Below are positions 4,856 to 56,261 of a DNA stretch of 64,000 bases, piece after piece (position 1 is the first letter of the stretch; each line of letters starts with the position of its first letter). The position numbers and the translations under genes were made by a program. The stretch is from positions 1,467 to 65,466 of the forward strand of contig JBGULD010000005.1 in the NCBI GenBank assembly GCA_045114745.1. Reading direction: 5' to 3'. The notes below the pieces were generated by a model. That model saw only the letters and a program-made list of their open reading frames with translations, did not search any database and was not told the origin of the DNA. The DNA comes from Bacilli bacterium (GTDB lineage Bacteria > Bacillota_I > Bacilli_A > RFN20 > CAG-826).

Positions 4856-4990
4856 AGGCCTAGTCCAAGGCCTTGAAAAAAACTTCTTTCATCCAGACTT
4901 TACTGTCGCCGCTTGAATCTCACAAGCTCATGCCTTTCGGCTCGTGGGGTATACCACCGGTCGCGTTATTCGCTGCCCTGAAGCAAGTTT
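4856..4990 (-). promoter_or_regulatory. FMN riboswitch (RFN element) with a hairpin expression platform
   Basis: The minus strand reads CAGGGCAGCGAATAACGCGACCGGTGGTATACCCCACGAGCC...GAGATTCAAGCGGCGACAGTAAAGTCTGGATGAAAGAAG. This matches conserved RFN core segments (AGGGC..GAA..CCGGTGGTA..CGAGCC.....GACAGTAAAGTCTGGATG.AAGAAG). A hairpin AGGCC-n8-GGCCT plus a U-run (4856-4873) sits immediately before the ribU ATG. Confidence 0.85.
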
Positions 4991-24329: not shown

Positions 24330-24899
24330 TCAGTATTTATAGTTTTCGACATATTCAATAAATTCTTTAATGTTGGATTCTGATAGCGGTAAACATTTCA
24401 ACATTGTTATAACTTCATTGTATTTTAAAGCAAGCAGTTTCAGATATTGCGCTGGTTTATGATTTGAAACATCAATTTTAAAACCATGCTTTTTAAAAAC
24501 TTCATCCATATTTGGATAAAAATATATAGGAACAATATATCCACCCTTTCCCCACCAATAGGATGAGAAGATTTCTCCATTTTTATATTTTTCAAAAAGT
24601 TCGTCTGGAGTATCATCTTTATCCATGATAGAAAAGATTTTATGATCCAAAATTCCTTTTTTCTTATCAATCTTTAAGCAATCCTTAAATTTTGTTTTAT
24701 AATCCGCTATCGTGGGAAAATGCGCCGACAAATAATCGTTAATAGTATTAATAATAATCGAATTTCTTCCATTCTTTTCTGAAAGAGGATTCAACGACTT
24801 GTGAGTCTTTACTTGAATCTGTTTAACAAGTATTTGTTCGCATTCGCCGTGGCAAATGGTTGAACATGGATGATAATGTATCTTTCTATTTCTTTTCAT
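24330..24899 (-). CDS. TOPRIM/RloB-like small protein, partner of the upstream ATPase
   Basis: The 189-aa product is counted from the ATG at 24899; the tracked start at 24905 is TTG. STICHGECEQILV resembles the xCEGxxTE TOPRIM glutamate motif of RloB/DUF4435 proteins, and FSIMDKDDTPDE resembles their DxD motif. A Cys/His cluster HYHPCSTICHGEC is also present. The gene overlaps the 3' end of the ATPase gene. Confidence 0.45.
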   Translation of the reverse strand: MKRNRKIHYHPCSTICHGECEQILVKQIQVKTHKSLNPLSEKNGRNSIIINTINDYLSAHFPTIADYKTKFKDCLKIDKKKGILDHKIFSIMDKDDTPDELFEKYKNGEIFSSYWWGKGGYIVPIYFYPNMDEVFKKHGFKIDVSNHKPAQYLKLLALKYNEVITMLKCLPLSESNIKEFIEYVENYKY

Positions 24900-26214
24900 G
24901 TTCAATAATATCCACGATATATTTCATGGAGAAAAAACCTGTTTGAGGTACTCCTCCATATAGTCCCTTTAAATATTGACCAACCACATCGGTTCCACTT
25001 TGTATTTGTCTACCAAAAACATCCAAAGAATAAGAAACAACCTGATCATATTTTTCGTCTCTATCTAAAAGATAAATATATTTCTTATTAATATTTTTTA
25101 ATAATAAGGTATTGTGTGTAGTAACGATCAATTGTCCTTTAACATCGTTTCCTAAAGAATCAAAAATAGCCTTCAAGAGAATATCATTGATTCCGGAATC
25201 AATTTCATCAATCACAACAATGTTGTCGTTGGCAACGATTTCATAAAAAGTGGGGAACAATTCTAATAGTTTTTTTGTTCCGGTAGAAGCTAGACTATAA
25301 GGAACTCGAGATTCATTTTCACCACCGCCTTCCACGAAGACAAGATTATATGTTCTGCTATTATCGGAAGACACTTCAATATCATAATCCACCCTATTAA
25401 TGTTCGAATAAATAGAAGTAAAAAACATCGACAAGGCTGTCTTTGTATTTTCTAATTGTTGTTTCATAGAATCAAAATAATTACCGTATACCAAAATAGG
25501 TAACATATTTGAATCATATTTGAACATTACTGGGAAATTGGTTGTCTCTTTAAAAACATGCAACTTCTCTAACTCAAACATGAATGCTCTAATGGTTTTG
25601 GAAATATTTCTATTGCCATAAGTTCCATCAATTTCTCCATATACAGAATTGATGCACGCCAAAAGAGTGTGCTTGCCAGAATACATTTTGAATCTTTCAG
25701 AGATTAAACTCTTAAGTTCTTCAGAGAAGAAATGGGCATCACTCAAATCAGCATTTCCGTATCTATCCATGCCAAAACCTAAATCGCCATTAATAAATAA
25801 CTTTTCTTCCACAATAGAAGAACTATCAAAGGCAAGGCGATAATCAAATTTGTCATTGCCAACAAAGCATTCGTATTTGGCCCTCATATTATCTTTAGAA
25901 CCAATCTTTTTATAAATGCTTATATATTCAGGTGCACTATATAAAAAGTCATCGTTAACATAAAGTCTATTGATTTGATTTTGCAAATTAGATATTCCAT
26001 TTCCAAGAAACTGATTCGAGAATTTAGTACTAGCAATGGAGTTCTTTACTTTATTAAGTAATCTAAAAGCATCCACTACTGTTGATTTTCCAATAGCGTT
26101 TTCACCATAGATAACCGCAACATTCTTTGCACTTTTCTCGGCTTTGTTTTGATGCAAATCAAATTCAAAATGTTTGAAGGATTTAAAGTTGTCTAAAACA
26201 ATTTTACTAAACAT
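24886..26214 (-). CDS. ABC-type (AAA_21/AAA_15-like) ATPase of defence-island type
   Basis: Walker A is YGENAIGKST. ASTGTKKLLEL is signature-like, Walker B is VVIDEIDSGIND, and VTTHNTLLL is H-loop-like. There is no transmembrane or transport partner. An AAAGAGGA RBS is present. Confidence 0.75.
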   Translation of the reverse strand: MFSKIVLDNFKSFKHFEFDLHQNKAEKSAKNVAVIYGENAIGKSTVVDAFRLLNKVKNSIASTKFSNQFLGNGISNLQNQINRLYVNDDFLYSAPEYISIYKKIGSKDNMRAKYECFVGNDKFDYRLAFDSSSIVEEKLFINGDLGFGMDRYGNADLSDAHFFSEELKSLISERFKMYSGKHTLLACINSVYGEIDGTYGNRNISKTIRAFMFELEKLHVFKETTNFPVMFKYDSNMLPILVYGNYFDSMKQQLENTKTALSMFFTSIYSNINRVDYDIEVSSDNSRTYNLVFVEGGGENESRVPYSLASTGTKKLLELFPTFYEIVANDNIVVIDEIDSGINDILLKAIFDSLGNDVKGQLIVTTHNTLLLKNINKKYIYLLDRDEKYDQVVSYSLDVFGRQIQSGTDVVGQYLKGLYGGVPQTGFFSMKYIVDIIEHEKK

Positions 26215-26551: not shown

Positions 26552-27433
26552 TTATCTTTCCCATTTAGCAGGGAATTTGCGTAATCCCACCATCTTTCCG
26601 CTTCTATTACAAACAATCTTATTTTTGACTATTTCAAAATCTTTACCCTCTGTCCCAAATCGCATATAACGATAAATAGGATATGAACATAAATCAGCCA
26701 TTTCTATGCCAGGATATGCAAAAGCTCCGTCGTCAGATACTTTATGATTGAAAAACGCATCCACAAAATAGCGCTTTAGTACATTTTTCTTTGTGCTTTT
26801 ACAACCAGTTATATTTATTATCTTATAGATGTGTTTGTATAGTGATTTGTCTTCATTTTTGCCTCTAGATTCAAAAACAAGAGCTATTTTTTTATTTCGT
26901 TTAACATTCTTATATAAGCACTCAAGAATAATATCGAAAGCAACTTCGTAAGGATCGTATTTATAGTTTTGTTTGACATAAGAATACAAATCAAACGTCA
27001 CAGAAATAATTTTGCTTTTTATCATGCTTATAACGCTCGAAAGAGAATCTAAAAATTTATTGTATTTTTTCGCGGTTCCAAAATTAAATGGGCCCACTCT
27101 TTTGGCGATGTCTCTGTTGTGAAGAACAACTGGCGATTCCACCTTTTTAAAATACTGGTTTTTCAATTTTGCTATTAATTGCTTTGAAAATTCATACTCA
27201 CTCTTTGAAAATAAACAACAAGTTAAAGTGAAATATCTTCTGTTTTCATCTACTGGTTTGTTTGTAACAACGGATTTAAACATTTGTAAAATTGCGCTTG
27301 CGGAACCATTTTCATCAAAACAAGCAACATAGTCATATTTATTGTCAAAAGATGTAAATTCTTTTAGTGGTGTTTTGGATACAATTTCTTCCCAGTTTTT
27401 CATATCTAAAACTTTATCACAATAAAAGTACAC
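26552..27433 (-). CDS. DUF3800-like protein
   Basis: VACFDENGS resembles the N-terminal xxDESG motif. VVLHNRDI and GIEMADLCSYPIY resemble the central H..D and C-terminal ADL motifs of DUF3800. The start is uncertain: GTG at 27433 or ATG at 27403. The hairpin GGGAG-cgt-CTCCC at 26527-26541 lies just downstream. Confidence 0.55.
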   Translation of the reverse strand: MYFYCDKVLDMKNWEEIVSKTPLKEFTSFDNKYDYVACFDENGSASAILQMFKSVVTNKPVDENRRYFTLTCCLFSKSEYEFSKQLIAKLKNQYFKKVESPVVLHNRDIAKRVGPFNFGTAKKYNKFLDSLSSVISMIKSKIISVTFDLYSYVKQNYKYDPYEVAFDIILECLYKNVKRNKKIALVFESRGKNEDKSLYKHIYKIINITGCKSTKKNVLKRYFVDAFFNHKVSDDGAFAYPGIEMADLCSYPIYRYMRFGTEGKDFEIVKNKIVCNRSGKMVGLRKFPAKWER

Positions 27434-27472
27434 TATGACATAAAATAATAAAAATGCGTTGCAACAATCCTA

Positions 27473-27880
27473 CTAAGACAGCTTATTTGCAGCATCGAAA
27501 ATATCGTCAATAATACCATTTGGTAATTCGGTGAAGAAATAAAGCGTTCCTGCTTGGTTAGTAGGCATACTTCCGTTATGTGGATTTTTATCTAAAAAAC
27601 TTTTTTGTCTTTTATCATCATCTGATATTGAGTAATGTGAATAAAGTCTGATAGAACGCTTAAGTATATAAGGCTCAATTTTATAATTATCCAGATAGTT
27701 TCTTACTAAAAAGGCCGCTTTATCCATATCACATTGATAAAATCTACCAGCAACTTTCCCGTCTGGTGTTTTAAATTTATCAGCATTTAAGGCAACATCG
27801 ATAAAGGACTTACACAAAATATAAAACTCTTCATTTGAGAAATCCGATGGAACTTGTTTTAAAAAGTCTTCTTTTGTCAT
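27473..27880 (-). CDS. Hypothetical 135-aa protein (no recognisable family), upstream partner of the DUF3800-like gene
   Basis: The start is assigned to the ATG at 27880 (MTKEDFLKQV...), which has AAGGAG 7 nt upstream. The tracked start at 27931 is TTG and lies inside the repeat-module edge. A 39-nt gap separates it from the next gene. Confidence 0.55.
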   Translation of the reverse strand: MTKEDFLKQVPSDFSNEEFYILCKSFIDVALNADKFKTPDGKVAGRFYQCDMDKAAFLVRNYLDNYKIEPYILKRSIRLYSHYSISDDDKRQKSFLDKNPHNGSMPTNQAGTLYFFTELPNGIIDDIFDAANKLS

Positions 27881-27929
27881 GCACATTCTCCTTAAAAACA
27901 TTATACATTTTTGCTTTTGTCTTCTAAAC

Positions 27930-28120
27930 AACTTGCACTTCTTTCTTTTTTGATGGATTTATAGACACACAAGGAACAAGCACCACTATGAATAATAAAG
28001 ACAAGGTTATCTTTGATAAGAAACTCCCATACGAATATAACATCTGTCTTTATATCTTAGAAGAATTATGCGATAAGGGAATTATCAATGTTTTTGAGAT
28101 GACTGAAGCCATAATTCTTC
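27930..28120. repeat. Copy A of a roughly 190-bp duplicated divergent promoter/small-ORF module
   Basis: It aligns without indels to 31487..31677 and is roughly nine-tenths identical by eye. The alignment includes a perfect run TACGAATATAACATCTGTCTTTATATCTTAGAAGAATTATGCGATAAGGGAATTATC. Confidence 0.9.
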
Positions 28121-28152
28121 TAAGAAAGAAATACAAAAAATGCCTGTTATAA
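27988..28152 (+). CDS. Small conserved ORF (54 aa) inside repeat copy A
   Basis: Manual translation gives MNNKDKVIFDKKLPYEYNICLYILEELCDKGIINVFEMTEAIILLRKKYKKCLL. It is a paralogue of the N-terminal 42 aa of ORF 31545..31781. The nucleotide differences between copies keep the frame open. AAGGAA lies upstream. Confidence 0.4.
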   Translation: MNNKDKVIFDKKLPYEYNICLYILEELCDKGIINVFEMTEAIILLRKKYKKCLL

Positions 28153-28392
28153 GTATCTATGGTAAAAAAAGACAATAATTCCAGCGACTAAAAAGTAAGG
28201 AAAAGAACTAATAAAAGAAGCTGGTCCGAAACACAACCTAAAATCCACACTCACCTTTGGCGAGTGTTAGAACCTTCCATGTCTAATGCGAGCCATATGA
28301 TGTTTTTTGGTCTTACATATTATTTCATTTTTAACAAATATAATAATCAATTAAATGGATATTAGAGATCGTTTTTGTGGTACAAATAAAAA

Positions 28393-29511
28393 TTATTTGA
28401 TTTCAATAAATGAAATCTGCTTTTTTATTTTTAAGTTGGTGACAATTGTGTTTCTTTTTAGTTCAGGATATCTATATCTCTCATAAGCATTCAACAGTTT
28501 AGATACATTCATCTCAAGTTTTTGTAATTCTCTATTTTGTGTTTTTTTGTCGCCAAATCTTGAATAACAAATATATAAATTTATCTGCTTCGCCGTTTCT
28601 TTCCATTGGTGGCCATAGTTTTGCTTATAAAAGAAATCGCACATATCAAATAGTTCAAAGAAATATGGGTAATCTTGTTCCCCTAGTGAGTGCCCATAAA
28701 TAATTATTGCCTGAACGCCTTTCCTATCAAAATCATAACTGAAATCAACATCCAGTTTTCGCCATTCTTTGCTTAATTCAAAAATATCATTATCCTTTAT
28801 GCTTTGCCCTGTTGAATCATATCCTACGACAATTTTGGTATTGAGAGTTCCGTGAACATTCGCTTCACAACAGTATTTAGAAGAATCAATGGTGGTATAG
28901 TTAAAATCTATAATCTGTAATAAATAGTCTTTATTAACTGGACAGGCAGCGATAATTTTATCAACCATTTGTTCTTGAAGCTTTATATAATCGTTCTGCC
29001 TTCCAAGCCTTCTTTTAAGATATTTAATTAAGTCACTTTCAAGTTCATCCAAATCTTCAGATAAGATTTTCTTAATTGTTGAATAATCAAACTTTTGTCC
29101 GTCTTTTACCCTTCTATATAAAAGACCATCAATTCTTAATTGAATAGTATCTTTGATATTATAGTTGGAGCTTGGTAAATGGCTTTTATATATCTTTGAA
29201 ATCATTTCCTCTTCAGTTGCTATTTTCTTAACAAAACCTTCAACATCCATCCAGTTTGGATTTTTATAATCCACCGCTCTAAAAAATCCTGCATAATCGC
29301 GTTCTCTATAAAAACGCAATTTAAGTAATAAGTAAAGCAAATTATCACCATTGTATTGTTTTGACTTATCAAGCACACATTTTTCAAAGAAATTAGAAAA
29401 AGATGATTTTAACCCTAAGTGCATATCAAAACCATTCCCAAGCACTAAGACGTTGTGTGTTTTTGCAAACAAATCGATTACTTTATTTATTTTATTTTGA
29501 TCCATTTTCAT
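28393..29511 (-). CDS. AbiH-like abortive-infection family protein
   Basis: The N-terminus NVLVLGNGFDMHLGLKSSFSNFF matches the characteristic AbiH signature (GNGFD..hGl.tsY.dF). IIIYGHSLGEQDYPYF matches the C-terminal GHSL..D motif. Size is 372 aa. Confidence 0.7.
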   Translation of the reverse strand: MKMDQNKINKVIDLFAKTHNVLVLGNGFDMHLGLKSSFSNFFEKCVLDKSKQYNGDNLLYLLLKLRFYRERDYAGFFRAVDYKNPNWMDVEGFVKKIATEEEMISKIYKSHLPSSNYNIKDTIQLRIDGLLYRRVKDGQKFDYSTIKKILSEDLDELESDLIKYLKRRLGRQNDYIKLQEQMVDKIIAACPVNKDYLLQIIDFNYTTIDSSKYCCEANVHGTLNTKIVVGYDSTGQSIKDNDIFELSKEWRKLDVDFSYDFDRKGVQAIIIYGHSLGEQDYPYFFELFDMCDFFYKQNYGHQWKETAKQINLYICYSRFGDKKTQNRELQKLEMNVSKLLNAYERYRYPELKRNTIVTNLKIKKQISFIEIK

Positions 29512-29567
29512 GTTCTTTTGTTTTGTTTAAGTGATTGTGCTCCCAATAACAAAAAGCTTTGAATCAA

Positions 29568-29720
29568 TTATCTATCATCTTTTGGTTTTGGATTTGGGTT
29601 TGAGGGATATTTATCTGGATCGATGTTTTTGTGGCTATCGTGAATGGTAATGTTTTTATTATCAGAATTTGGGACACTATAGTTCTCTCTTATCGGTTTT
29701 TTTACTTTTGTATCAGGCAT
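29568..29720 (-). CDS. Possible 50-aa hydrophilic ORF translationally coupled to the upstream membrane-protein gene
   Basis: Manual translation gives MPDTKVKKPIRENYSVPNSDNKNITIHDSHKNIDPDKYPSNPNPKPKDDR. Its ATG at 29720 overlaps the upstream TGA (ATGCCTGA). The sequence is low complexity and has no homology support. Confidence 0.25.
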   Translation of the reverse strand: MPDTKVKKPIRENYSVPNSDNKNITIHDSHKNIDPDKYPSNPNPKPKDDR

Positions 29721-30309
29721 AATTAATTCCCTTCCTTTTCAAATAATATGCAGATTCTAAACTGCGATAATATTTTTGAACGACACTATTACGTGGATGC
29801 TTATTTAAAAACAATTTCATACAATATTTAGATGATAAATAAAACATATTCTTAAAAACTTTAATATAGTTATATAGTTTTTCTTTATCTTCTATTGTTA
29901 CCGAATCATTCAAATGTTTTTTTCTAAAATTCATATAATTGTTTTCTATTTTAAGAAATCTATATGCAAAACACTTTTTCTTTTCTTCTACATCATCACA
30001 CTTAATACAACCAAATTCTTCTAGATATTTATATCTATTGGCCACACCATAATAATATAGTCTATTAAAGCCAGTTAATAATTCTTCTTCAGTAGCAATT
30101 ATTCCTTTCATATCACGAAATGACCCACTATCAAGGATTTCATAGGCATCATTAATAAAAGACAATATCCCTTTTGTGTTATCAAAAAAGAAATCAATAT
30201 TGGCTTTATTATGTTGCCTAATTGCAAAATATAGCGAAATAAAAGCAATAACCATTGATATACAAGCAATAGATATTGAGATAATTGAAGTAACTACATC
30301 TGTTTGCAT
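29713..30309 (-). CDS. Hypothetical single-pass membrane protein (N-terminal TM helix + about 160-aa helical cytoplasmic domain)
   Basis: The TM helix is VVTSIISISIACISMVIAFISLYFAI, followed by a Lys/Tyr-rich soluble domain. I recognise no family. TATAAT lies 6 nt upstream of the ATG and there is no SD, so the transcript may be leaderless. Confidence 0.5.
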   Translation of the reverse strand: MQTDVVTSIISISIACISMVIAFISLYFAIRQHNKANIDFFFDNTKGILSFINDAYEILDSGSFRDMKGIIATEEELLTGFNRLYYYGVANRYKYLEEFGCIKCDDVEEKKKCFAYRFLKIENNYMNFRKKHLNDSVTIEDKEKLYNYIKVFKNMFYLSSKYCMKLFLNKHPRNSVVQKYYRSLESAYYLKRKGINYA

Positions 30310-30450
30310 ATAGTTATTATAAATCAGTAGAGCAAAGATGTCTTTAAAGTACTATTAAATCCATCATTAAATCATTTTAAAATTCATTGGTCCAAGCTAA
30401 TATCGCCGTCTTTTATCGACTATGCGATGTCAGAGCACCATTGTCGCTCT

Positions 30451-31458
30451 CTATTTTGATTCTTTCAATTCTTCTTTAAAATCTTTCACGGCTTTTTCTA
30501 GTTGCTTCGCATCACTTGAAAAAACATATTTATACGAGCAAGCCACACTATTTCTATTAGAAGCTTTTAATCCGGCATTAGAATAAACATTAAATTGTGT
30601 GCATTCACAATCTGTTCTTTCATAAAACTTTCTTTTGTCTGACATGATAAGCAAGAGTCTTTTAGATAGCGGAACCTCGACCACCATCCCGTATGTTGCA
30701 AGGGATGGAGGAAACATTGGCATTATTTCTTCTGTTGGACACAAGTTTAATAATTTATCAGTTAAGAACAGGGTTCCTCTATCAAAGAAAACAAATTGCC
30801 AAGTATAATTGAAGAAAATGTTCGTCATTTTATCAATAAGTTCTTTATTAATAATGGCGGAAATATGAAATAATCTTTTTTGTTCTTTTGTATAAGAGAT
30901 GGTTAAATTTTCCGGCTTAATATGGATGCCACCAAACTGTGCCATAATAGCCGTTGTTTGTTTAACCATTGAAACTCTCATTTCATCATAAAAATCTCTA
31001 ACATATTTTGTTTTGATGTGATGCAGTGCCAAAAGATGGGCAAACTTGGCCTTATTAACATCATCTAATAGAATTCTTTTTCCTTCTTTTGCATTTTTGA
31101 TTGTTTGTGATATTAATTCTCTGAATTCTGGTTCATATTGATTACTATACAAGTCATCAACAGCATATTCTAAATCTTCTTTTTCTTCCTTTGACATTTC
31201 AGATATCGGTTTAAATCCATCTTTTATAGAGGCTTCATCAATCTTTCTCTTTTCTTGATCATCTGAGCGATTATAAATATCTACTATTCCGAGATTGAAA
31301 AAATAGTTTTCTTCGCCAACATCTTGAATATCGCTCCAATAAAACTTATCAGTGTCTTTATTATAAACATACAATTTTTCATTCTTGGTGCAAAAATTCT
31401 TAAAATAGTGTTGAGATATATAGTGTTGCTTTTTGGCTCTGGTTTTTTTCCTTGACAT
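30451..31458 (-). CDS. DUF4238-like protein
   Basis: The N-terminus KKQHYISQHYFKNF matches the DUF4238 signature (HyvPqfyLrnF). Size is 335 aa. Confidence 0.6.
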   Translation of the reverse strand: MSRKKTRAKKQHYISQHYFKNFCTKNEKLYVYNKDTDKFYWSDIQDVGEENYFFNLGIVDIYNRSDDQEKRKIDEASIKDGFKPISEMSKEEKEDLEYAVDDLYSNQYEPEFRELISQTIKNAKEGKRILLDDVNKAKFAHLLALHHIKTKYVRDFYDEMRVSMVKQTTAIMAQFGGIHIKPENLTISYTKEQKRLFHISAIINKELIDKMTNIFFNYTWQFVFFDRGTLFLTDKLLNLCPTEEIMPMFPPSLATYGMVVEVPLSKRLLLIMSDKRKFYERTDCECTQFNVYSNAGLKASNRNSVACSYKYVFSSDAKQLEKAVKDFKEELKESK

Positions 31459-31486
31459 AAATTGTATCTTAATTTTACAACAAAAC

Positions 31487-31677
31487 TACTTGAACTTCTC
31501 GCTTTTTTGATGGATTTATAGACACATAAGGAACGGGCACCTCTATGCACAATAAAGGCAAGGTTATCTTTGATAAAAAACTCCTATACGAATATAACAT
31601 CTGTCTTTATATCTTAGAAGAATTATGCGATAAGGGAATTATCGATGCTTTTGAGATGACTGAAGCCTTAATCCCTC
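31487..31677. repeat. Copy B of the duplicated divergent promoter/small-ORF module
   Basis: It is collinear with 27930..28120. Weaker homology patches continue downstream (GGCGAGTGTT and GAGCCATnTnnTGTTTT in both copies). Confidence 0.9.
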
Positions 31678-31781
31678 GGCGAGTGTTTACCAAACAAAAA
31701 GACTCACATTTCAACATAATTGAAACACGAGCCATGTATTGTTTTAAAAGAAAAGAAAAGCGGAATCCCGCTATTTCTTGA
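31545..31781 (+). CDS. Small ORF (78 aa) inside repeat copy B, paralogue of 27988..28152
   Basis: MHNKGKVIFDKKLLYEYNICLYILEELCDKGIIDAFEMTEAL is conserved with copy A, and the C-terminus then diverges. Its 3' end runs through the terminator and stop codon of the convergent epimerase gene, so the true length is doubtful. Confidence 0.35.
   Translation: MHNKGKVIFDKKLLYEYNICLYILEELCDKGIIDAFEMTEALIPRRVFTKQKDSHFNIIETRAMYCFKRKEKRNPAIS
31741..31772 (-). terminator. Rho-independent terminator of the ugd-HEPN-epimerase transcription unit
   Basis: The minus strand reads GCGGGATTCCGC followed by TTTTCTTTTCTTTT, overlapping the TAG stop at 31771-31773. Confidence 0.7.
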
Positions 31782-32797
31782 TATAGAAACTATAATACCA
31801 TTCCGCAAAACGTCTTAATCCATCTCTAAGACTTGTGGATGGTTTATAACCAAAATCTCTTTCTAAATCACTTGTATCTGCATATGTAACAGGAACATCG
31901 CCTTTTTGCATTGGCGCCAATTTCTTGTGAGATTCGAAATCATAATCTTTAGGAAGTACATCCGCTTTAACGAGTTCTTCAGATAATATCTGTACGAAAT
32001 CTAATAGGTTTTCTGGATTATTATTACCAATGTTATAAATCTTATACGGAGGAATTGGTAAACCATCTTCTCCATCATGTTTCACTGGAGGTTTATCCAT
32101 CACTCTTATAACGCCTTCAACAATATCATCTACATAAGTGAAATCTCTTTTACAATTACCATAATTAAAGATTTCAATAGTTTCACCTTTAATTAACTTA
32201 TTAGTAAAACTAAAGTACGCCATATCTGGTCTTCCCATAGGACCATATACAGTAAAGAATCTTAATCCAGTTGTTGGGATGTTATATAACTTAGAATAAG
32301 CATGCGCTAGTAATTCATTAGACTTTTTGGTCGCAGCATATAAACTAACTGGATTATCTACTTTATCGTCTGTAGAAAATGGAACTTTAACATTGCCACC
32401 ATAAACGGATGATGAAGATGCATACACTAAGTGTTTAACTGGATGATATCTACATGCTTCTAATATGTTATAGAATCCAATAATATTTGATTGAATATAA
32501 ACATCAGGATGATCAATTGAATATCTAACACCCGCTTGAGCCGCTAAGTTGACAACAATATCAAAATAATATTCATTAAATAACTTATCTAAAAATGCTT
32601 TATCGGATATATCACCTTTAACAAATGTAAAGTTCTTAAAAGAAGATAACATTTTGAGTCTTTCATTTTTTTAAAGACACATCATAATAATCATTAAGGT
32701 TATCTAAACCAATAATGTCATAATCTGTGATTTCTAATAATTTTTTACATAGAAACGCACCTATAAATCCTGCAGCGCCTGTAATGAATATTTTCAT
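31771..32797 (-). pseudogene. UDP-glucuronate 4-epimerase-like NAD-dependent epimerase, interrupted by a frameshift in an A7 tract
   Basis: The ATG at 32797 gives [44 protein letters not shown] and then TGA. Removing one A from the A7 run (T7 on the plus strand, 32666-32672) restores ...[26 protein letters not shown]..., continuous with tracked ORF 31771..32652. That ORF carries YASSSSVYG and YAATK, the SDR catalytic motifs. Confidence 0.8.
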
Positions 32798-34149
32798 AAC
32801 GTATTCGAGGTTTGGTTTTTATCGTCTCCAGACAACTCTTCTGTTTTGAAATCACCAATGTGATTATTGACTATTTCATTGTAATAAATTGTATCTCGAA
32901 ATTGCAAAAATAATGGCCAGTTAATCAATTCGTTTGGTGTTTTGTCGGAGGAATATGATTGTTCAATTAATATGGCCGCATCTTTATAATTATCTAATAA
33001 AATTAGTTTAGCAATCTTGAACTGTATTTCAGCTGCACTAACATCAAATGTCGCAATTTCTTTATCAAAAGAATCATTTTGGCTTGAATATTTTAAAGAC
33101 AACAACAGATTAACCTTGGCAATCATTTTTGTAGCAAAATCAAGCTTTTTAGATGAAGAAAGAACCTTATAAACAAATGAAGTCAAAATATATTCTTTGT
33201 TGGCCAACTTTTCAAAATAATAATCCAGCAATTCATCAACATTGTTTTCAGAGGGTTTTTCTTTTTCCAACAGTTTAAAAACAATAAAAAACATTATTTT
33301 TTGAATATTAATAATATTTTCCGCAAAATACTCTTTGTCACACTTTAATGAAGTACCAATTTTGCACAATGATGATGGAATCGACTTCAAATACATTTGA
33401 TTCACAATTCCTTCGTTGTGAACAAATATGTTTCTTCTGTAGTATAATTCACAAAAGCGATCGAATAAATCTTTAATCTCTCCAAGGCATATTTTTTCTT
33501 TTTCGAAAATCTTTTTCGTGGTCTCAATCGAATCAAACATATCTGCTTCAACAATCTCATCAATTTGTTCATTTATAATTTCATCAACGTCCTTTCTAAT
33601 CAAGGATTGTAATGTTATTGTTTTTGAGCAGAAATATATGGATGGGTTATTGTGTATTAAAGCTGTATAGACGCACGAAAGAAATGACTCGTATGTGGAT
33701 ATCAAACTAGACAATATTGATTTTTGTAAACAAGAATACATATATCCATATTTTTTCATTATTCTTCTAGCAGTGGATGGCGAATATAGTTTTCGATCTT
33801 TAATTTCTTGATTAAAAACAAATTCAAATCCCATCTCTTTTTCGCTAAATGATAATTCTGAAAACAAATCAAAAAGCTTGTATTTTGAAGAAACGGGAGC
33901 ATTTTTAATCTCTTCCGCCCTTTCTTTTCTTTCTTTTTCGGTTTTGCATTTGTAAACAGAATTAAATAATGAAAGAATTTTGAAGGACGTTTCGTTGTTT
34001 TGTTTTTCTTTCGCAAAATTCTCTTTAATTGCTGCCAAATTAATTAAAAAATAGTCAAAGAGTTGTCCAATGTGCTCGGAAAAAGAAATGCAACAACTAA
34101 CTATTGCGTTTTTGAATTGTTCTTTGAAATCTTTATTGTCGTCTTTCAT
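32794..34149 (-). CDS. HEPN-motif protein (predicted RNase-type defence/toxin domain) with a large uncharacterised N-terminal region
   Basis: [14 protein letters not shown] contains the Rx4H HEPN catalytic motif (RNIFVH) in a helical context. The product is 451 aa from the ATG at 34149; the tracked start at 34155 is TTG. Its stop TGA overlaps the epimerase ATG (ATGA), and its start lies 7 nt after the ugd stop. Confidence 0.55.
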
Positions 34150-34155
34150 AAACAA

Positions 34156-56136: not shown

Positions 56137-56177
56137 CTTGATATTTATAATAATATAATTATTATAATTTACTGTCT

Positions 56178-56261
56178 GGTGCACCTAGCAGGAATCGAAC
56201 CTGTACGAGTTGCCTCACTAGATCCTAAGTCTAGCGCGTCTGCCAGTTCCGCCATAGGTGC
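56178..56261 (-). tRNA. tRNA-Leu (anticodon UAG), class II with a long variable arm and an encoded CCA end
   Basis: The minus strand reads GCACCTATGGCGGAACTGGCAGACGCGCTAGACTTAGGATCTAGTGAGGCAACTCGTACAGGTTCGATTCCTGCTAGGTGCACCA. The acceptor stem is GCACCTA/TAGGTGC. The anticodon stem CTAGA/TCTAG encloses the loop CTTAGGA. The T-loop is GGTTCGATTCC. Confidence 0.9.

Follow-up and report, generated by a model that had tools for sequence, protein, structure and literature searches.

Does a compact run of four genes enclosed by two copies of a repeat constitute one composite anti-phage system, or have separate defence modules been stacked at the same site? We examined this question for a block of co-directional minus-strand open reading frames (ORFs) in a Bacilli bacterium (GTDB Bacillota_I; Bacilli_A; RFN20; CAG-826). 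The whole stretch of DNA analysed, here called the window, has 64,000 nucleotides (nt) and corresponds to positions 1,467–65,466 of the forward strand of contig JBGULD010000005.1 (assembly GCA_045114745.1). A preliminary description, made from the letters of the window, had proposed the four ORFs as a candidate composite anti-phage cassette, while allowing for either one multi-gene system or two to three stacked systems. All four ORFs are present: a DUF4238 gene (30451–31458, 335 amino acids (aa)), a gene for a single-pass transmembrane (TM) protein (29713–30309, 198 aa), a small ORF (29568–29720, 50 aa) and an AbiH-family gene (28393–29511, 372 aa; a start at 29505, giving 370 aa, is likelier). 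The described gaps of 141 nt between the DUF4238 and TM genes and of 56 nt between the small ORF and AbiH are borne out, as is the overlap of the small ORF's ATG with the TGA of the TM gene at the junction ATGCCTGA.

Our comparison of loci favours stacking. We consider it likely that the block consists of three independent modules in a cassette hotspot of a defence island, namely the DUF4238 gene (module 1), the TM gene with its small ORF (module 2) and AbiH (module 3). The defence flavour of the block is thus supported, while the proposed composite system is not. Overall, the block is an ordinary defence island with one new candidate two-gene module, and annotating it as a new composite AbiH system would not be warranted.

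Separation of the four genes across loci

We compared gene neighbourhoods in 32 sequence sources, the window included, the others being labelled L001 onwards. The most inclusive explanation, in which all four genes form one composite four-component system carried as a repeat-flanked 3.6-kb cassette, takes its appeal from the common orientation and tight packing of the genes between two repeat copies, and from the recurrence of the quartet in a single other source, L001. However, the L001 contig carries the four genes in sequence 100% identical to the window and is broken at the repeats, and it provides no independent evidence. The quartet was found together in no independent locus among the 32 sources, and the idea of a four-gene composite did not survive this co-occurrence check.

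A second locus, L002, the only related one, separates the genes. Its order is GmrSD, the TM gene, a 52-aa counterpart of the small ORF, the first 50 codons of AbiH and a type II CBASS operon. Nucleotide homology with the window extends from 30353 to 29354 at 82% identity, beginning 44 nt upstream of the TM start and ending where CBASS replaces the rest of AbiH. The DUF4238 gene lies outside this shared segment; L002 lacks it and has GmrSD in its place upstream of the TM gene. The entire repeat-bounded segment of L002 contains GmrSD, the TM gene, the small ORF, the AbiH fragment, CBASS, two AAA_14 genes and Fic. Because this is a different gene set, repeat-bounded units are not fixed systems. 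Together with the documentation of DUF4238 and AbiH each as single-gene systems, these comparisons make a four-component system very improbable. The CBASS operon itself (L002 4974–8905) has four genes, encoding a Sa_NUDIX effector, a SMODS cyclase, an E1/E2-like ThiF protein and a JAB protein.

We found the same separation when hidden Markov model (HMM) searches were applied to six-frame translations of the 32 sources. DUF4238 occurred only in the window and L022, and the TM and AbiH genes occurred together only in the window, the identical L001, and L002. AbiH relatives at 41–70% identity are found in five other contexts, all without the TM/small pair. In L003 (70% identity), three unrelated genes lie upstream and homology with the window starts exactly at the AbiH start codon. 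The L004 contig (66%) starts 70 nt upstream of AbiH and has an AAA_14/DUF4143 gene downstream. An AAA_14 pair lies upstream in L005–7 (47%), an nSTAND3 NTPase, a kinase and a 97-aa ORF in L027 (L027/28; 45%), and an FRG-domain gene in L029–31 (41%). Conversely, relatives of the TM/small pair occur in six other contexts without AbiH or DUF4238, and none of the pair's contexts outside the window lineage has either gene.

These measurements also bear on a narrower explanation, in which the window lineage has a three-gene system made up of the TM protein, the small protein and AbiH, with DUF4238 as a separate neighbour. The anchored protein and its partner would then sense infection, or would localise or regulate a SIR2-like AbiH effector. 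The trio is contiguous and co-directional, and the window and L002 inherited it within a single homologous segment of 1 kb. In addition, the AbiH N-terminal fragment of L002 (4633–4785, 50 codons) shows a ratio of nonsynonymous to synonymous substitution rates (dN/dS) of 0.036, indicating strong purifying selection until its truncation, which must be recent as the fragment's ratio is still so low. Against this, there is a single independent co-occurrence of the three genes, AbiH occurs without the pair in five contexts and the pair without AbiH in six, and the CBASS insertion in L002 cut AbiH down to 50 codons while leaving the TM gene and small ORF intact. The sequences therefore point to the trio as a single evolutionary event in one lineage, and we regard a three-gene system as unlikely.

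Transcription signals are compatible with both outcomes. The best promoter-like site in the block (AAGACA, a 17-nt spacer and TATAAT; 30316–30344, minus strand; 10 of 12 consensus positions) precedes the TM gene and falls within the L002-homologous segment, which starts at 30353. A consensus scan detected no terminator-like site in the gap between the DUF4238 and TM genes or in the 56-nt gap between the small ORF and AbiH, and the latter gap shows no clear promoter or Shine-Dalgarno sequence. These features would suit a three-gene system. Downstream of AbiH, we located a terminator-like hairpin (28247–28267, minus strand) with a 9-bp stem, an AAA loop and then GGAUUUUAGG, which contains a short U run. 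This hairpin was missed by the consensus scan because its T run is short, and it appears in both the minimum free energy and the centroid fold of the minus strand of 27926–28320. The TM gene, small ORF and AbiH are probably on one transcript here, an arrangement that fits either simple stacking or a lineage-specific functional link. If the modules are merely stacked, modules 2 and 3 would be co-transcribed without functional dependence on each other.

The TM transcript has one further feature. Only 6 nt separate the end of the -10 box from the TM ATG, a Shine-Dalgarno sequence is lacking, and L002 retains the same layout of TATAAT, 6 nt and ATG. Together, these observations suggest a leaderless mRNA.

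The membrane protein and its small partner

The TM/small pair is the only element of the block that appears to be new, and it is a good but unproven defence or toxin-antitoxin candidate. The single N-terminal TM helix described previously corresponds to the protein's sole hydrophobic segment, at residues ~5–30 (Kyte-Doolittle score of 2.46). Across 28 family members, lysine and arginine residues average 0.25 before the helix and 3.5 after it, an asymmetry that predicts an N-out, C-in topology with a cytoplasmic helical domain.

The two middle genes had been called orphans, and neither the window's TM protein nor its small ORF product matches Pfam, PADLOC, NCBIfam or PHROGs. In the strict sense, however, the TM protein is not an orphan. 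A word-indexed search of 5.8 billion clustered proteins returned only the protein itself and a single close relative (78% identity, L002), and the family emerged only from a full HMMER scan of 1.84 billion representatives, which yielded about 30 cluster representatives of 190–243 aa aligned end to end. Scans of a genome collection and of viral contigs with back-translated patterns detected no relatives. The dN/dS of the TM gene between the window and L002 is 0.15. The family has no invariant polar residue, and only leucine and phenylalanine positions are near-invariant. Since no polar or catalytic residue is conserved, a structural, binding or pore-type role seems likelier than an enzymatic one. 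The AlphaFold model of the TM protein is all-helical (pLDDT 93.8), and Foldseek comparisons with PDB and BFVD returned no match at E<0.4, only generic helical-bundle noise.

The small protein is hydrophilic, basic and proline-rich, and its ORF overlaps the TM gene by 8 nt, with a GGAAGGG purine run preceding the ATGCCTGA junction. We examined eight non-redundant loci of the TM family (the window, L002, L008/9, L010–13, L014, L015/16, L017 and L026). In all eight, the TM gene is followed by a hydrophilic ORF of 50–69 aa, whose start lies between -14 and +12 nt relative to the TM stop; the L015/16 contig ends 23 codons into it. Compared to its counterpart in the 78%-identical locus L002, the window's small ORF has a dN/dS of 0.13. 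This ratio, and the occurrence of such an ORF after the TM gene in all eight loci, show that the small ORF is more than a chance reading frame. Common to the small proteins are a basic N-terminal motif (M-x-x-x-K-x-K-K-P) and a C-terminal tail that contains proline and has a charged end; this end is acidic in four loci, and in two it is lysine-rich. Cysteine is almost absent from these proteins, and they have no signal peptide. In L017, the genes that follow the small ORF are convergent, and the unit therefore ends with it. From the arrangement of these loci, the TM gene and small ORF appear to be a conserved, translationally coupled and autonomous two-gene unit.

What does this unit do? Its contexts provide an indication. 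In the window it is accompanied by DUF4238, AbiH, an AbiLi-like ATPase and DUF3800; in L002 by GmrSD, CBASS, AAA_14 and Fic; in L008 by a Gp49/HTH toxin-antitoxin pair, Fic and DUF6088+AbiEii; and in L026 by AAA_13 and AAA_21+RloB. In L010–13, the neighbours are large secreted Big_2 proteins and a homing endonuclease. Four of the five informative contexts are defence or toxin-antitoxin islands. We propose that the pair could act as a membrane-tethered abortive-infection or toxin-antitoxin-like module, where the small protein would restrain, or report to, the anchored TM protein and infection would release an activity at the membrane. That the pair is a true anti-phage system is, in our judgement, possible rather than probable.

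Alternatively, the pair could be a passenger with no part in defence. It might regulate from a membrane tether, serve as an accessory of the cell envelope, or be a selfish addiction (toxin-antitoxin) pair of the kind that builds up in variable islands. In L010–13 it sits between the large secreted Big_2 surface proteins, beside the homing endonuclease, with no recognised defence gene nearby, and the islands concerned adjoin polysaccharide loci. No defence-database model matches the window's TM protein, and the sporadic, TM-helix-driven matches among the 28 members (Hol_Tox of Pfam in one, the CBASS '1TM' effector model of PADLOC in two) are weak hints of a membrane toxin. Set against these points are the four contexts rich in defence or toxin-antitoxin genes, and the failure to find the TM family in IMG/VR, phage or plasmid collections, which makes the pair unlike a phage lysis or exclusion gene. 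We give the passenger explanation a minority share of our belief.

Comparison with known membrane-anchored proteins shows both likeness and difference. Lactococcal AbiP and Sie2009 are membrane-anchored single-pass Abi or exclusion proteins. With these and with the CBASS '1TM' effector model PDLC00666, the TM protein shares an N-terminal single TM anchor, a soluble domain of ~170 aa and a location in defence islands. Unlike them, it always has a coupled small partner, and neither sequence nor profile searches link the window's protein to them.

We also considered an Rz/Rz1-like spanin pair, which was suggested by the N-terminal TM helix, the overlapping small proline-rich ORF and the phage-like Big_2/HNH neighbours in L010. 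We rejected this reading: the small proteins have neither a signal peptide nor a lipobox cysteine, the large domain is predicted to lie in the cytoplasm, and there were no viral matches. The large proteins encoded upstream of the TM gene in L008 and L010 were likewise rejected as a third component: the window, L002 and L026 lack them, and the resemblance between those of L008 and L010 is limited to a signal peptide and a C-terminal segment.

The useful product of the analysis is the TM/small pair, with its ~30 clusters, strict two-gene synteny, purifying selection, neighbours that mostly belong to defence islands and a confidently predicted fold that has no significant PDB or BFVD match. PADLOC v2, Pfam, NCBIfam and PHROGs do not include it. 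Together, these properties make it a concrete defence or toxin-antitoxin candidate that is cheap to test.

DUF4238 and AbiH as single genes

Both outer genes had been assigned to families by their N-terminal signatures, and profile searches agree with each assignment: their products appear to be new, distant members of known single-gene families. The DUF4238 protein matches Pfam PF14022 at 74.4 bits (cut-off of 27) over residues 10–317, covering profile positions 1–280 of 281. It has no PADLOC, PHROG or NCBIfam match, a search against PDB sequences found nothing, and tblastn against a phage genome collection gave no match. In L022, a 276-aa DUF4238 gene with 20% identity to that of the window stands alone between the repeat element and a convergent gene.

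One DUF4238 gene, found in a P2-like prophage hotspot of E. coli, is sufficient for strong resistance to T7 (PMC9122126). As in this Rst_DUF4238 (Rousset et al. 2022), the window gene has a full-length Pfam DUF4238 match and lies in a variable hotspot, and the L022 example indicates that such a gene can be a single-gene cassette. The likeness is set by Pfam family and organisation, with no similar record in the phage collection, and the settings differ: Rst_DUF4238 is in a prophage, while the window gene is chromosomal in a low-GC, uncultured Bacilli lineage. The window gene is probably a single-gene defence determinant of the Rst_DUF4238 type, and would act as a stand-alone gene from the family that protects E. 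coli against T7.

The AbiH protein matches Pfam PF14253 at 68.6 bits (cut-off of 30.9) over residues 21–289, covering profile positions 1–247 of 260. The PADLOC AbiH model PDLC02345 scores 27.4 bits (E = 5.6e-7) over two stretches, which marks the protein as a distant relative only, and its identity to genes annotated 'AbiH family protein' on plasmids of lactic acid bacteria is 23–29%. The window's AbiH clade is seen almost only in gut and rumen metagenomes, and its invariant residues are G25-N26-G27, D29 and N218-x-H220-G221.

The earlier view of AbiH as a single-gene determinant holds, but its statement that the mechanism is unknown is dated. According to a 2026 review (PMC13064643), AbiH is a single lactococcal gene whose product resembles sirtuins and may deplete NAD+. 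Our AlphaFold model (pLDDT 85.9) weakly agrees with the predicted sirtuin-like fold. In Foldseek searches of PDB, ranks 1–4 were the SIR2 subunit of E. coli SIR2-HerA (E-values of 8.7e-4 to 5.8e-3, probability 0.66–0.92), though with weak TM-scores of 0.26–0.33; DSR2 (rank 17) and the sirtuin Hst2 came lower in the list. A profile search against PDB sequences found nothing. From the fold resemblance and the conserved GNGxD and N-x-HG motifs, we infer that AbiH could be a stand-alone SIR2-like effector that degrades NAD+ upon infection. Such an NAD-consuming role is plausible but weakly supported by the model.

The window protein shares with Lactococcus lactis AbiH (Prevots et al. 1996) its Pfam family, an N-terminal GNGFD motif, a length of ~350–370 aa, a predicted sirtuin-like fold and an occurrence in defence islands as a single-gene unit. 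It differs in being very distant, in sitting directly behind the TM/small pair and in being known here from sequence alone. The window AbiH also differs from the defence-associated SIR2 NADases (SIR2-HerA, DSR1/DSR2, Thoeris ThsA), which gave the best structural matches and which have in common with it conserved Gly-rich and N...HG motifs: its TM-score is only ~0.3, it has no partner ATPase or sensor domain, and its NADase activity is putative.

Several points weigh against our reading of three independent defence modules. The trio of TM gene, small ORF and AbiH is contiguous, and probably co-transcribed, in both the window and L002, so that a lineage-specific functional link keeps a small chance of being real; these two loci represent one event, which neither proves nor disproves the linkage. 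The defence association of the TM/small pair rests on five informative contexts, and in one of them, L010–13, the pair stands beside surface proteins and a homing endonuclease rather than defence genes. The window's DUF4238 protein has no PADLOC match. The SIR2 resemblance of AbiH is weak (TM-score 0.31–0.33), with no sequence-level match in PDB. Finally, none of the four genes is known other than by its sequence.

The repeat and the variable island

The preliminary description had placed the block between two repeat copies, and we recovered these as direct repeats at 27926–28120 and 31483–31677 with 91% identity. Using nhmmer, the copies extend to 27926–28181 (copy A) and 31483–31687 (copy B), both on the plus strand, and are the only two in the window. 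The repeat covers the beginning of a conserved 66-codon ORF (MHNKDKVIFDKKLPYEYNICLYILEELCDKGVIDVFEMTEAIILLRKKYKMPVISIYGKKDNNSSD), which is on the strand opposite to the cassettes, together with the region upstream of this ORF. Copy A contains the upstream region and a 5′ part of the ORF that is frameshifted in an A run, relative to the intact ORF in L018 and L022. Copy B, which comes immediately after the epimerase gene and immediately before DUF4238, carries the same element, with an ORF that diverges after codon 42.

The element appears to be a small gene, given that its variation is concentrated at third codon positions (minor-allele cells of 28, 25 and 58 at codon positions 1, 2 and 3). 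The ORF is intact in L018, L022 and L024. Its 66-aa protein falls in a 267-member cluster at 90% identity, one member of which is a hypothetical protein from a Candidatus Izemoplasmatales metagenome-assembled genome (MAG); the protein has no Pfam family and the repeat no Rfam family. We found an exact 23-mer of the repeat in eight species-representative MAGs, all from uncultured Bacilli and most of them explicitly ruminant; their labels are Bacillales, Erysipelotrichaceae or Staphylococcaceae.

The element marks variable cassettes in MAGs of rumen Bacilli/Izemoplasmatales. It follows the UDP-glucose dehydrogenase (ugd)-epimerase pair in L019 and L022, as it does in the window, and its copies are 85–95% identical across species, compared to only ~80% for the adjacent ugd and epimerase genes. 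It is always oriented like the genes that follow it, is present in one to three copies per 8 kb, and is truncated at different points in the window, L018–L025, L002 and L003. The cassettes downstream of it are an HD protein with a superfamily 1 helicase (L018); a gene of no assigned function, a reverse transcriptase and an AAA_15 ATPase (L019); a KAP NTPase (L021); DUF4238 (L022); DUF2971 (L023); an AAA_13 ATPase (L025); and glycosyltransferase and oxidoreductase genes (L024).

We found no recombinase domain in ORFs of >=100 aa between 24330 and 34155. The conserved small gene and its upstream region probably supply the homology for cassette exchange by homologous recombination. As in P2/P4 defence hotspots and integron arrays, variable, co-oriented and mostly defence-related cassettes occupy a conserved chromosomal position and are separated by copies of a conserved sequence. 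Unlike in integron arrays, the separating sequence is an ORF-bearing repeat of ~200–250 nt instead of an attC-like hairpin, and the island has no integrase or other recombinase.

Other identities for the repeat and its setting were rejected. A structured RNA was disfavoured by the missing Rfam family and by modest folding z-scores (-2.2 and -2.6). An attC-like site is at odds with the repeat's length (200–250 nt) and ORF content. An integron-type cassette array would have an adjacent integrase and short attC-type sites, and neither was seen among the ORFs of >=100 aa between 24330 and 34155 or in the ORF-bearing repeat.

In the most far-reaching interpretation, the TM/small pair is an undescribed two-gene anti-phage system controlled by its ~50-residue protein, and the repeat is a new kind of recombination anchor by which defence cassettes are shuffled where a polysaccharide operon ends in rumen Bacilli. 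We offer this conjunction tentatively, as more doubtful than not. In any case, the repeat can be used to mine variable cassettes from an uncultured rumen lineage: a search with it alone yielded HD-helicase, reverse transcriptase-ATPase, KAP NTPase, DUF2971 and DUF4238 cassettes, along with several that are unannotated.

At the other end of the island, a 442-aa ABC/SMC-type ATPase (PADLOC AbiLi, 140 bits) has an end that overlaps a family-less 191-aa ORF (24330–26214, minus strand); this is probably an AbiL/PARIS-like two-gene system. Directly downstream of copy A, a 293-aa DUF3800 protein follows a family-less ORF of 134–152 aa (26552–27931, minus strand), and the two look like another hotspot cassette. 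On the other side of the block, the UDP-glucose dehydrogenase and epimerase genes, which are directly adjacent in L019, are separated by a 453-aa ORF (32794–34155, minus strand) that has no counterpart in Pfam, PADLOC, NCBIfam or PHROGs; the position is a second variable insertion site of the locus.

A frameshift in an A7 run near 32655–32665 (SLKK followed by a stop, versus SLKEARLE) divides the NAD-dependent epimerase gene (31771–32797, minus strand) into pieces of 44 and 293 aa, whereas L019 and L022 have an intact gene of 339 aa. The split may reflect a pseudogene, phase variation at this tract or an error in sequencing.

In gut and rumen metagenomes, defence islands with the AbiH clade or the TM/small pair (L027, L029–L031 and L008) also adjoin UDP-glucose dehydrogenase or other polysaccharide-synthesis genes, and the end of the surface-polysaccharide locus may be a recurrent defence hotspot in gut and rumen bacteria. 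Elsewhere in the window, an FMN riboswitch (4877–4989, minus strand, 79 bits) and a tRNA-Leu gene (56177–56261, minus strand) are ordinary features unrelated to the block.

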